Shown here: positions 15,722-17,659 of the stretch, piece after piece
How the letters are laid out: each line of letters begins with the position of its first letter
How positions within the stretch are numbered: the stretch's first letter is position 1
Virus record (IMG/VR): IMGVR_UViG_2740892113_000002
Strand: one strand, 5' to 3'
Source of the DNA: a virus
Taxonomy: Duplodnaviria > Heunggongvirae > Uroviricota > Caudoviricetes
DNA length: 24,336 bases
Program-made: the position numbers and the translations under genes
The notes under the pieces: model-generated
What the model saw: the letters and a program-made list of their open reading frames with translations, nothing else
The model's database searches: none
Told to the model about the DNA's origin: nothing

Positions 15722-17659
15722 TCAGCCGCCGGACGCACTGCCGTAGTTCACTCCGGTGATCACCGCCACCGCCGCAGTACGGCGACGACGCCAGTTGATC
15801 CAGCGCTCCGCACGGATGGCCACGCTGCCTGTCTGGAACATGGAAACCAGCTCCACCGGGGACGGCGTGGTACTGTCGCCGGTCGGCTCAGACTGCATTT
15901 CCAGTGATGCCTCGCGGGACATATCCACTGCCACGCCGCCGTCATCCGCCAGATAAATATCCGGGGCATTCACCAGCACCAGCTGGTCACCCACGTACTG
16001 GGAGACAATCACCGGCAGCCCCTGGAAGGAGCCACCCAGCAGGGTCATGTCCGGGTATTCCTTCTGACCCAGCGCATTTTTACGCATGGACAGTGCCAGG
16101 GCATTGGTGCTGGACATCAGCCAGACCGCACCGGTGGGCTGCAGGTTTGCTGCCACAAACTGTCCAAACGCAGCCTCTGCATCCGCATCCGGGTTACCGG
16201 TTGATGCCGTGCCCTTCACATCATGGGTGATGGACGCCGGGGAGACATCTGCCACTGCGGCTTTTTTCGGGTCCACAAAGTCTGTATCCAGACGCGCCAC
16301 CACCGCTTCCGCCAGCGCATTACGGACCAGTGCATCAGCAGCCGGACTGGAAAAACGGATCAATTCTTCCGTCAGTACCGCAATGGCCGACACCTTCGCA
16401 TGACTGAAGGTGATGGATTCAAAATCAAACTTCGTCAGGGGTTTTGCCTTACCCTCACCCACCCAGCCGGCAGCACCGCCGGACACCTGGGCGTGCACAC
16501 GGATATTGAATGGCACCTGACGAAGTGCAGGGATCCCGCCCTGACCAAATCGCCCGATAATGGTCTGCGGACGCAGGTAATCAATAAAGTCCTGTGCGTA
16601 TTCCTGATATTCAGACAGGCTGCCTGCCCACTGCGGATCCGTGGTGGTCCCCGCGCCCACTGCCGATTTCAGGACATGATGCAGACGACTGTCATCCGGA
16701 TACTGACGACGGGCCACTTCCAGGGCTTCAGATCGGACGCCTTTAGCCGCAGCCAGCGATTTGGCAAAGCGGGCGAAGCCAATCCCCTTATCCAGTTTCT
16801 GCTCCACACGGATCACCGGCGCAGAAGCCACCGCGGCCACATTCCCGTTACCGGCCTGTTTCACCGGCTGCGCCGTGGCGGCCTTACCGGCTTCCAGTTC
16901 ACGCAGGCGCTTCAGGTGCGCATCCACCTGACGGATTTCCGCTGCGGTGTTGTCGTAATGCTCTTCCTCCTCCACATCCAGCGTGCGCCCTTCCTCTGCG
17001 GCTTTGGTCATGACCTCCTCAAGGGAGGCTGCCAGCGCTGCACGCTTGTTTTCAAAACTTTTAATCTGTTCGCCAATATTCATTATGGTCTTTTCCTTAT
17101 GAAAAACGGTTGTTGACTGTGCCGCAGCGCCGGCAGAAGATGCGATTTTCACCACCGGTTTCCGGTTGCCGGACGCGGCAGAAAACGGGCGGTCGTAAGA
17201 TTTAATGGTCCGGATGGTGCATTCCGCATTCGCGGGCACGGTGACGGCAGACACCTCCATCAGTTCCCAGCGCAGAAAATGCAGTCCGCCTCCGTCCAGA
17301 AAGGTGTATTCATGGGGACGGAAGCCCACGGACAGCCCCCTGACCAGCCCGGTCTTAATGGCCGCCCAGACCTCATCCAGCCGGGCAGCCAGTTGCGACG
17401 GCATATCCGGTACGGGCTTCACCAGTGTTGCCGTGATTTCCAGCCCTTCGCTGACCCGGCGCACCGTACACTGCCCCACCGGGCGGGAATGGTCATGCTG
17501 CCAGAGAAACGGGATCGCACTGCCAAACTCCGCGCCCTCCGGCTCCAGGATGTCACCATCCCGATCCGGAGAAGGCGTTGACGCAATCCCGGTGATCACC
17601 CGTTCATCCTCACTGAAGGATTTCACCGTCAGCAGGGAACAGGCCCGTTTAAGAGTCAC
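15722..17659 (-). CDS. Prohead protease / major capsid protein fusion (HK97-type protease domain, scaffold-like delta region, HK97-fold capsid domain in one ORF)
   Basis: 645 aa, GTG start with AGGAGG RBS. The N-terminal 190 aa carry prohead protease motifs (LWQHDHSRPVG; GLSVGFRP; EVSAVTVPANAE). From residue 193 (MNIGEQIKSFENKRAALAASLEEVMTKAAEEGRTLDVEEEE…) it reads as an HK97-family capsid protein with a coiled-coil delta region. An in-frame ATG at about 17083 with an AAGGAAAAG RBS could also yield capsid alone. Confidence 0.85.
   Translation of the reverse strand: MTLKRACSLLTVKSFSEDERVITGIASTPSPDRDGDILEPEGAEFGSAIPFLWQHDHSRPVGQCTVRRVSEGLEITATLVKPVPDMPSQLAARLDEVWAAIKTGLVRGLSVGFRPHEYTFLDGGGLHFLRWELMEVSAVTVPANAECTIRTIKSYDRPFSAASGNRKPVVKIASSAGAAAQSTTVFHKEKTIMNIGEQIKSFENKRAALAASLEEVMTKAAEEGRTLDVEEEEHYDNTAAEIRQVDAHLKRLRELEAGKAATAQPVKQAGNGNVAAVASAPVIRVEQKLDKGIGFARFAKSLAAAKGVRSEALEVARRQYPDDSRLHHVLKSAVGAGTTTDPQWAGSLSEYQEYAQDFIDYLRPQTIIGRFGQGGIPALRQVPFNIRVHAQVSGGAAGWVGEGKAKPLTKFDFESITFSHAKVSAIAVLTEELIRFSSPAADALVRNALAEAVVARLDTDFVDPKKAAVADVSPASITHDVKGTASTGNPDADAEAAFGQFVAANLQPTGAVWLMSSTNALALSMRKNALGQKEYPDMTLLGGSFQGLPVIVSQYVGDQLVLVNAPDIYLADDGGVAVDMSREASLEMQSEPTGDSTTPSPVELVSMFQTGSVAIRAERWINWRRRRTAAVAVITGVNYGSASGG

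Follow-up and report, generated by a model that had tools for sequence, protein, structure and literature searches.

How does a tailed phage that encodes its maturation protease, scaffold and capsid protein in one reading frame control the number of protease molecules per head? The question is raised by a head gene in the IMG/VR virus record IMGVR_UViG_2740892113_000002 (Duplodnaviria; Heunggongvirae; Uroviricota; Caudoviricetes), a stretch of 24,336 nucleotides (nt) that we refer to, at its full length, as the window. Data from its relatives point to an internal start in the style of lambda C/Nu3 as the control of protease number, and we consider it probable, judging from comparison of sequences, that the open reading frame (ORF) is a nested gene pair like lambda C/Nu3, with the internal start making the capsid protein without the protease. 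The gene and the domains of its product of 645 amino acids (aa) are laid out as follows:

15722..17659, minus strand: head-gene ORF, 645 aa, with a GTG start at 17659 and a TGA stop at 15724-15722; it encodes the protease, linker, delta/scaffold and HK97-fold capsid.
17201..17608, minus strand: S78/HK97-type prohead serine protease domain, aa ~18-153 (PF04586; alignment to HK97 gp4; AlphaFold 2 (AF2) predicted local distance difference test score (pLDDT) above 90).
17497-17495, minus strand: codon of catalytic His55, from alignment to HK97 gp4 H65.
17332-17330, minus strand: codon of catalytic Ser110, from alignment to HK97 gp4 S114.
17084..17200, minus strand: hypervariable linker, aa 154-192, predicted to be disordered (pLDDT below 50 over aa 154-190); its coding sequence holds two hairpins and an internal Shine-Dalgarno (SD) sequence.
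16814..17083, minus strand: delta (scaffolding) domain, aa 193 to ~282 (AF2 helices 195-222 and 229-262, then a disordered tail; TIGR01554 from aa 204).
15725..16813, minus strand: HK97-fold major capsid protein domain, aa ~283-645 (PF05065, TIGR01554, Foldseek).

The initial annotation had described a prohead protease and a major capsid protein encoded as a single 645-aa ORF; its coordinates, length and internal motif were correct, the strand (minus) being left unstated, and both of its domain assignments were borne out by Pfam, NCBIfam, PHROG, AlphaFold and Foldseek. Peptidase_S78 (PF04586) matches aa 48-152 with 34.7 bits (cut-off 21), Phage_capsid (PF05065) matches aa 386-635 with 53.1 bits (cut-off 24.2), and the HK97 major capsid protein model TIGR01554 matches aa 204-584 with 78.1 bits (cut-off 27.5); the stricter protease equivalog TIGR01543 scores 46.5 bits, under its cut-off of 59. 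PHROG 617, a profile of major head proteins of the fused type, is matched from position 7 to 626 of its 626 positions by aa 1-639 (E=1e-261). The NCBIfam model for prohead protease/major capsid protein fusions, NF045541, gives a partial match (aa 48-287) of 54 bits, far below its cut-off of 525, and the 645-aa ORF therefore represents a different fusion family. An AlphaFold model based on an alignment of 53 diverse relatives (mean pLDDT 82.5) consists of the protease (18-153), a disordered linker (154-190), a helical hairpin (195-222 and 229-262), a disordered segment (267-282) and the capsid domain; the disordered tail that follows the delta helices probably holds the candidate maturation cleavage site. 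With the capsid domain as query, Foldseek retrieved the capsid proteins of Bxb1 (9d9w, E=5e-15), HK97 (gp5, TM-score ~0.7), D3 and T5 with a probability of 1.0, and a sequence search of the PDB gave one weak capsid match, again 9d9w, with no close relative solved and no match to the protease.

The residues required for proteolysis are in place. His55 and Ser110, which align with His65 and Ser114 of HK97 gp4, are conserved in 100% and 99% of 150 representatives, respectively, and are invariant in the 53-sequence alignment; Glu135 is likewise at least 99% conserved among the 150, and catalytic and structural residues are under purifying selection. The protein does not have the form of a free-standing S78 protease, as its catalytic domain ends at about aa 153 and is continued by the disordered linker and the delta domain, and the C-terminal tail of ~65 aa seen in HK97 gp4 (taken from NC_002167) has no counterpart in it.

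The single frame is genuine and not a sequencing error. An indel at the junction, which the initial annotation had wished to see excluded by resequencing, is ruled out by the identity of the ORF across hundreds of genomes and by the single uninterrupted frame of 177 of 189 loci. Three phage records and many independent E. coli chromosomes contain exactly this DNA (100% identity); among 5,426 complete genomes of E. coli the gene is present in 1,255, with an identity of 99% or more in 845. The annotation's suggestion that related prophages might share the fusion proved well founded: 2,494 homologues were scored, those among the matches listed being 644-648 aa long and coming from Salmonella, Enterobacter, Klebsiella, Serratia and others; an exhaustive search recovered the full-length fusion in 142 of the 150 top-ranking representatives (taken at the 50% identity level), and fused relatives extend through the gamma- and alpha-proteobacteria down to ~38-43% identity. 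That a frameshift, a base-calling error or the decay of a defective prophage joined two genes is hence exceedingly improbable, given the identity of the ORF in independent complete genomes and phage isolates, the length kept across genera and the purifying selection on its residues. Nothing was found in favour of such an origin, although some individual relatives are decayed, one (L135) with an in-frame TAG around position 2490, within the capsid domain, and another (L028, 3001-4427) rearranged so that the capsid and protease matches lie in swapped order and different frames. Longer forms were also encountered: P0001 (1079 aa) has a TerL ATPase domain fused ahead of the protease-capsid chain, and P0123 and P0132 (~1090 aa) carry about 440 extra N-terminal residues; these extensions could be further fusions, frameshifts or gene-calling artefacts.

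The protease-capsid fusion is already known and very common, and by itself is nothing new, annotations having carried the label 'major head protein/prohead protease' for a long time. BP-4795 ORF56, phage 2851 Gp17, the YYZ-2008 gene and the E. coli RefSeq 'phage major capsid protein' are the same gene at 98-100% nucleotide identity; in the Shiga toxin (Stx) phages BP-4795, 2851 and YYZ-2008 it is labelled 'putative major head protein/prohead protease', and both NCBIfam and PHROGs hold protease-capsid fusion families. These annotations of the gene in phages and in RefSeq give one coding sequence (CDS) only, without an internal start or an RNA element. We read the ORF as a functional head-morphogenesis gene from a lambdoid prophage of E. 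coli with a structural module similar to that of BP-4795/2851.

The evidence for a second product comes from the start of the delta domain, for which the initial annotation had noted an in-frame ATG with a ribosome-binding site at the capsid N-terminus. The two competing start signals are:

17665..17670, minus strand: SD sequence AGGAGG of the upstream (fusion) start, 5 nt before the GTG at 17659; duplex energy -10.3 kcal/mol.
17090..17098, minus strand: internal SD-like sequence AAGGAAAAG, whose AAGGA ends 10 nt before the ATG.
17081..17083, minus strand: internal in-frame ATG (Met193), the proposed delta-capsid start; start and SD are kept in relatives.

We collected 80 dereplicated ORFs with DNA from gamma- and alpha-proteobacteria and from viral and metagenome contigs, spanning 43-78% identity. 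A start codon behind an SD sequence occurs at the Met193 site in 79 of the 80 (73 ATG, 5 GTG and 1 TTG), which upholds the annotated internal signal across the family, and at the protein level a methionine stands directly ahead of the conserved delta helix in 129 of 142 fused representatives. Among the same relatives the linker leading up to residue 193 is hypervariable, in length as well as in sequence. The internal SD is purine-rich and canonically spaced; Enterobacterales have AAGGA or AAAGGA, and lineages rich in GC have GGAGG(G). Its median energy of -7.2 to -7.3 kcal/mol lies in the top 3.7% of codon positions, it marks the best in-frame start of the whole ORF in 37 of 79 cases, and it is at least as strong as the SD of the first start in 49 of 78 relatives. 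It is kept across codon registers (AAG-GAA, AAA-GGA, xAG-GAG-Gxx and AGG-AGA) over amino acids that vary (KEG, EEG, QEG, KG, KE and RR), a pattern that suggests selection on the nucleotides rather than on the protein. Moreover, the mRNA from -20 to +20 of the internal start is 1.1-1.6 standard deviations less structured than the gene body. Relative SD strength was also considered as an indicator of the ratio of the two products and set aside, as it is inconsistent between lineages, the enterics favouring the first start and the GC-rich lineages the internal one.

Further evidence comes from relatives in which protease and capsid are split genes, among them those of the beta-proteobacterial genus Snodgrassella. 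The Snodgrassella locus (L026/27) encodes a 234-aa protease, followed by 23 nt that contain GAGAGG and then by a capsid gene of 439 aa whose product begins MTIEEQI; in L176 the SD and the stop codon of the protease overlap (cTAAGGAaacaccGTG), and in L161 an 85-nt spacer is followed by AAGGAAATCAAA-ATG. In every one of these split relatives the capsid gene begins at the equivalent of Met193, so that the internal start of the fused forms is the true start of the capsid gene here. The split forms have different fused forms as their closest relatives (62-68% identity); the stop codon has therefore been gained or lost several times and the two states have interconverted repeatedly, which would be tolerable only if the internal start works.

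Such split relatives, with a capsid gene starting at the very same codon, and HK97 itself with its adjacent separate genes, would also accord with a reading in which the ATG and its SD are the leftover start of a once-separate capsid gene after recent loss of a stop codon and have no present function. We consider this very unlikely: the fused state reaches ~38-43% identity in gamma- and alpha-proteobacteria, a divergence that an unselected SD would not survive; the SD has been re-tuned to the host, with AAGGA in enterics and GGAGGG in GC-rich lineages; and repeated recent independent fusions would be required in dozens of lineages.

The junction of the split relatives shows two additional features. 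In Snodgrassella (L026/L027, 3001-5048) the protease shares ~63% identity with its counterparts in fused relatives and the capsid protein only ~34%, a mosaic joint that suggests module exchange right at the hairpin/linker region. All three split proteases verified at the DNA level have similar C-termini, ...AVKLL(H), ...AVKLL and ...IVKL (L161 ~1090-1119, L176 ~2060-2088 and L026 ~3690-3705), and fused relatives carry a VV[RK]L motif upstream of hairpin 2; the AVKLL/VV[RK]L segment may be a conserved strand or a processing signal.

Based on these observations, we propose that the nested gene pair would operate as follows. Translation from the GTG at 17659 would give the 645-aa protease-delta-capsid chain, which would co-assemble as a capsid subunit and bring the protease into the prohead by a covalent tether. 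In HK97 the C-terminal tail of gp4 targets the protease into the prohead; since a tail of the gp4 type is absent here, the covalent link to delta-capsid plausibly replaces it, the tether thus standing in for the targeting tail of the free HK97 protease. Independent initiation at the internal SD and ATG (Met193, 17083) would give a 453-aa delta-capsid protein and thereby protease-free subunits. After assembly the protease would remove itself, the linker and the delta domains, a step modelled on the HK97 pathway. We infer the making of both products, their ratio, which the initial annotation expected to be fixed, the cleavage steps and any influence that the hairpins may have on internal initiation or on the processing of the mRNA.

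Several points weigh against the nested-gene reading. The internal AAGGA of the present sequence is modest, at -6.2 kcal/mol with 10-nt spacing, and when a duplex-energy cut-off of -5.3 kcal/mol is used to compare in-frame starts, 14 ATG, GTG or TTG codons of the ORF match or beat this cut-off; SD strength in the window alone was accordingly rejected as evidence. The upstream start has the stronger SD here, though its codon is GTG, and ribosomes arriving from it would partly block access to the internal site. A disordered linker rich in Lys, Glu and Gly could account in part for the weak mRNA structure and for the purine-rich motif, and the relatives are phylogenetically related, so that the counts overstate the number of independent events. 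Finally, the literature searches found no protein, N-terminus or ribosome-profiling report of the 453-aa product. We conclude that, as far as its sequence goes, the internal ATG and SD are unexceptional in this one gene, their significance coming only from their conservation in relatives.

These points bear on an alternative in which only the fusion is made. All subunits would then be protease-delta-capsid chains in a 1:1 ratio, the protease would excise itself from every one of them, and Met193 and the SD would be unused and kept for protein reasons, as a processing site or as the first residue of the delta helix. The one uninterrupted frame with its strong first SD and the unremarkable internal signal of this sequence favour such an arrangement, and the portions available of the papers on small-genome actinophage fusions mention no internal start (PMC5513430, PMC7302621). 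It is nonetheless an unlikely explanation, as it leaves unaccounted for a start codon and SD kept in 79 of 80 lineages amid a hypervariable linker, the retention of that SD at the nucleotide level across registers and amino acids, and the reduced mRNA structure around it; furthermore, the nonsense or stop-gain variants L176 and L161 persist as apparently intact two-gene modules using the Met193-equivalent start. We accordingly favour the nested pair, and the interpretation given in the initial annotation is supported. The literature searched yielded nothing on internal starts in such protease-capsid fusions, and the family-wide conserved internal start is possibly new.

Upstream of the internal start lie two hairpins that the initial annotation had missed:

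17167..17180, minus strand: hairpin 1, UGCC-GCGUCC-GGCA, with a GCC/GGC core that is nearly invariant, synonymous sites included.
17121..17134, minus strand: hairpin 2, GCCG-GCGCUG-CGGC, with a 4-bp stem, a 6-nt loop and compensatory changes across relatives.

A synonymous-site scan of 18 enterobacterial ORFs (median nucleotide identity 72%) placed the strongest synonymous constraint of the gene 40-100 nt upstream of the internal ATG and not at the ATG. The ratio of observed to expected synonymous change has its gene minimum of 0.17-0.19 at codons 175-181, which correspond to hairpin 2, and is ~0.3 at codons 161-165, which correspond to hairpin 1, the gene mean being 0.99±0.18; directly after the internal ATG the same scan found no constraint (0.9-0.98). 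At the junction RNAalifold predicted precisely hairpins 1 and 2 and nothing further.

The pairing of hairpin 2 was counted in 67 unique sequences that had been extracted by protein-motif position only. In these, 98.5% of cells are paired, versus 78.6±1.7% on shuffling (none of 500 shuffles reaching the observed value) and at most 47% in slid controls. One pair alternates between G-C (34) and C-G (30), another, which joins two synonymous third-codon positions, between C-G (48) and U-A (14), and at least 8 different perfectly complementary stems occur among the relatives. The encoded residues follow suit: in protein-only representatives the residues flanking hairpin 2 are P..G (45) or A..A (14), never P..A or A..G, and the flanking residues are compatible with pairing in 69 of 80 sequences versus 37±3.4 when shuffled. 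Hairpin 1 is weaker, its fourth pair covarying in about half of the sequences, with 85.6% of cells paired versus 78.4±1.3% on shuffling (again reached by none of 500) and at most 41% in slid controls. The loop bases GCG(C)U do not change even where the host is rich in GC, the spacing is fairly regular (median 33 nt from hairpin 1 to hairpin 2 and median 40 nt from hairpin 2 to the start), and hairpin 2 is present in one copy per locus and is kept upstream of the capsid start in the split relatives.

What these elements do can be framed in several ways: they may tune internal initiation, mark a site of mRNA processing or stabilization, serve as a binding site for a regulator, or function in the DNA itself at a recombination joint. 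One variant of the nested-gene model would derive the capsid-only product from a processed or separately stabilized mRNA, the hairpins serving as an RNase site, a 5' stabilizer or a binding site for a regulatory protein (scaffold or protease) and thereby setting the protease:capsid ratio. This variant, which we hold to be possible but doubtful, gains from the location of the strongest synonymous constraint of the gene at the hairpins, from covariation that spans two synonymous sites together with compensating amino acid changes, and from the fixed loop bases, the fairly even spacing and the retention of hairpin 2, once per locus, in split relatives. It is weakened by stems of only 3-4 bp, which are thermodynamically weak alone, by the lack of a match to a known RNA family (Rfam 15 gave nothing at gathering thresholds in the window, and within 16950-17300 only chance-level matches with E>=1.9), and by the finding in the window and the loci of relatives of no convincing further copy of the hairpin motif that would hint at a trans-acting binder. 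A role at the level of the DNA, for instance in recombination where the modules join, is also possible. Programmed frameshifting at the hairpins was considered as well, but stems of 4 bp are too weak for stimulating it. A consensus scan of 15400-17800 found no internal sigma-70 promoter.

Returning to the nested pair with initiation at Met193, we tentatively suggest, as a proposal with less than even prospects, that the two hairpins, the unstructured spacer and the internal SD and ATG form one conserved cis-regulatory RNA module within the linker coding sequence, in which base pairing would dictate the amino acids of the linker (A..A versus P..G, S..D, V..T) and which would set the protease:capsid stoichiometry. 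Such a module could work by regulating internal initiation, via the processing of the mRNA, or through feedback from an assembly protein that binds it. The pair of covarying hairpins that precedes the internal start in the alignments is possibly new, and a cis-regulatory element of this kind is not known to have been described before.

In the interval 12925-19944, on the minus strand, the gene order is terS, terL, protease/capsid, a small ORF and the portal gene, and the distant Snodgrassella relatives are alike (L026 1214-6741). One further feature lies just upstream of the gene:

17671..17698, minus strand: terminator-like hairpin and T-run, GAACCGC-TCCG-GCGGTTT (hairpin 17698-17681), between the terL stop (17723) and the AGGAGG-GTG of the fusion start.

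This hairpin is presumably read through in the late operon. The small conserved ORF between capsid and portal (15456-15677, minus strand; 73 aa, beginning MAKIRYLQGTHDARAGDIRDV) shares 55 nt with the annotated beginning of the portal gene. It is the same as ORF57 of BP-4795, and a Snodgrassella ORF with a similar N-terminus is found at the same position (L027 5090-5455). The portal ORF (12925-15510, minus strand) encodes 861 aa, of which aa 45-388 form an HK97-type portal that is followed by a long C-terminal extension; this extension contains 3.3 tandem copies of a 162-bp (54-aa) repeat (13391-13923) and also gives a weak match to CBM_5_12. In BP-4795 the same portal region is annotated as two genes, the portal ORF58 and the hypothetical ORF59.

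The internal-start answer would cover a family found in about a quarter of complete E. coli genomes, in Stx-phage relatives and in many other proteobacteria. If it is true, a second CDS is needed in thousands of annotations, and the two start strengths would offer a simple genetic handle for studying how protease dosage affects the assembly of HK97-type heads. The hairpins illustrate cleanly how a protein linker is shaped by selection on the RNA, and they constitute a candidate regulator; the cis-regulatory module, should it be real, would set stoichiometry across a very large family of head genes from proteobacterial phages.

Among known systems, a maturation protease and an HK97-fold capsid protein, in some cases with a scaffold between them, are encoded by single genes in Arthrobacter phages of clusters AM, AU and AN, Rhodococcus phage RRH1, Microbacterium phages of clusters EE and EL and Pseudomonas phage MD8 (PMC5513430, PMC7302621, PMC8508860). 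These fusions belong to other sequence families, the MD8 protease being of the ClpP/lambda-C type, and the available text of the papers mentions neither an internal start nor conserved RNA hairpins. The gp4 and gp5 proteins of HK97 share with the window protein the S78 protease family with aligned catalytic His and Ser, the capsid fold and the N-terminal helical delta domain, which is predicted here, and the HK97 protease gene likewise lies immediately before the capsid coding sequence. In HK97, however, these are two genes separated by a stop codon and 2 nt (NC_002167), whereas here a disordered linker joins the protease to delta-capsid in one frame, without the tail that ends gp4. The gene order differs as well, being portal, protease, capsid in HK97, whereas the portal gene follows the capsid gene in the window.

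Nested in-frame protease-scaffold genes of the same logic are known from phage Mu (I/Z) and the herpesviruses (UL26/UL26.5). In lambda, the C/Nu3 locus gives a long protease-assembly product and a shorter 3'-coterminal product from an internal in-frame start (Shaw & Murialdo 1980, as cited in PMC8508860). In lambda, Mu and herpes simplex virus the two products have been shown experimentally, whereas for the window gene they are predicted from sequence. Lambda C is a ClpP/S49-like protease, whereas the window ORF matches only the S78 family, with no Pfam match of the ClpP/S49 type; its resemblance to C/Nu3 is thus one of mechanism and not of ancestry. In those three systems, moreover, the internal start yields a free scaffold, with a separate gene for the capsid protein, whereas here the nested product would be scaffold and capsid in one chain.

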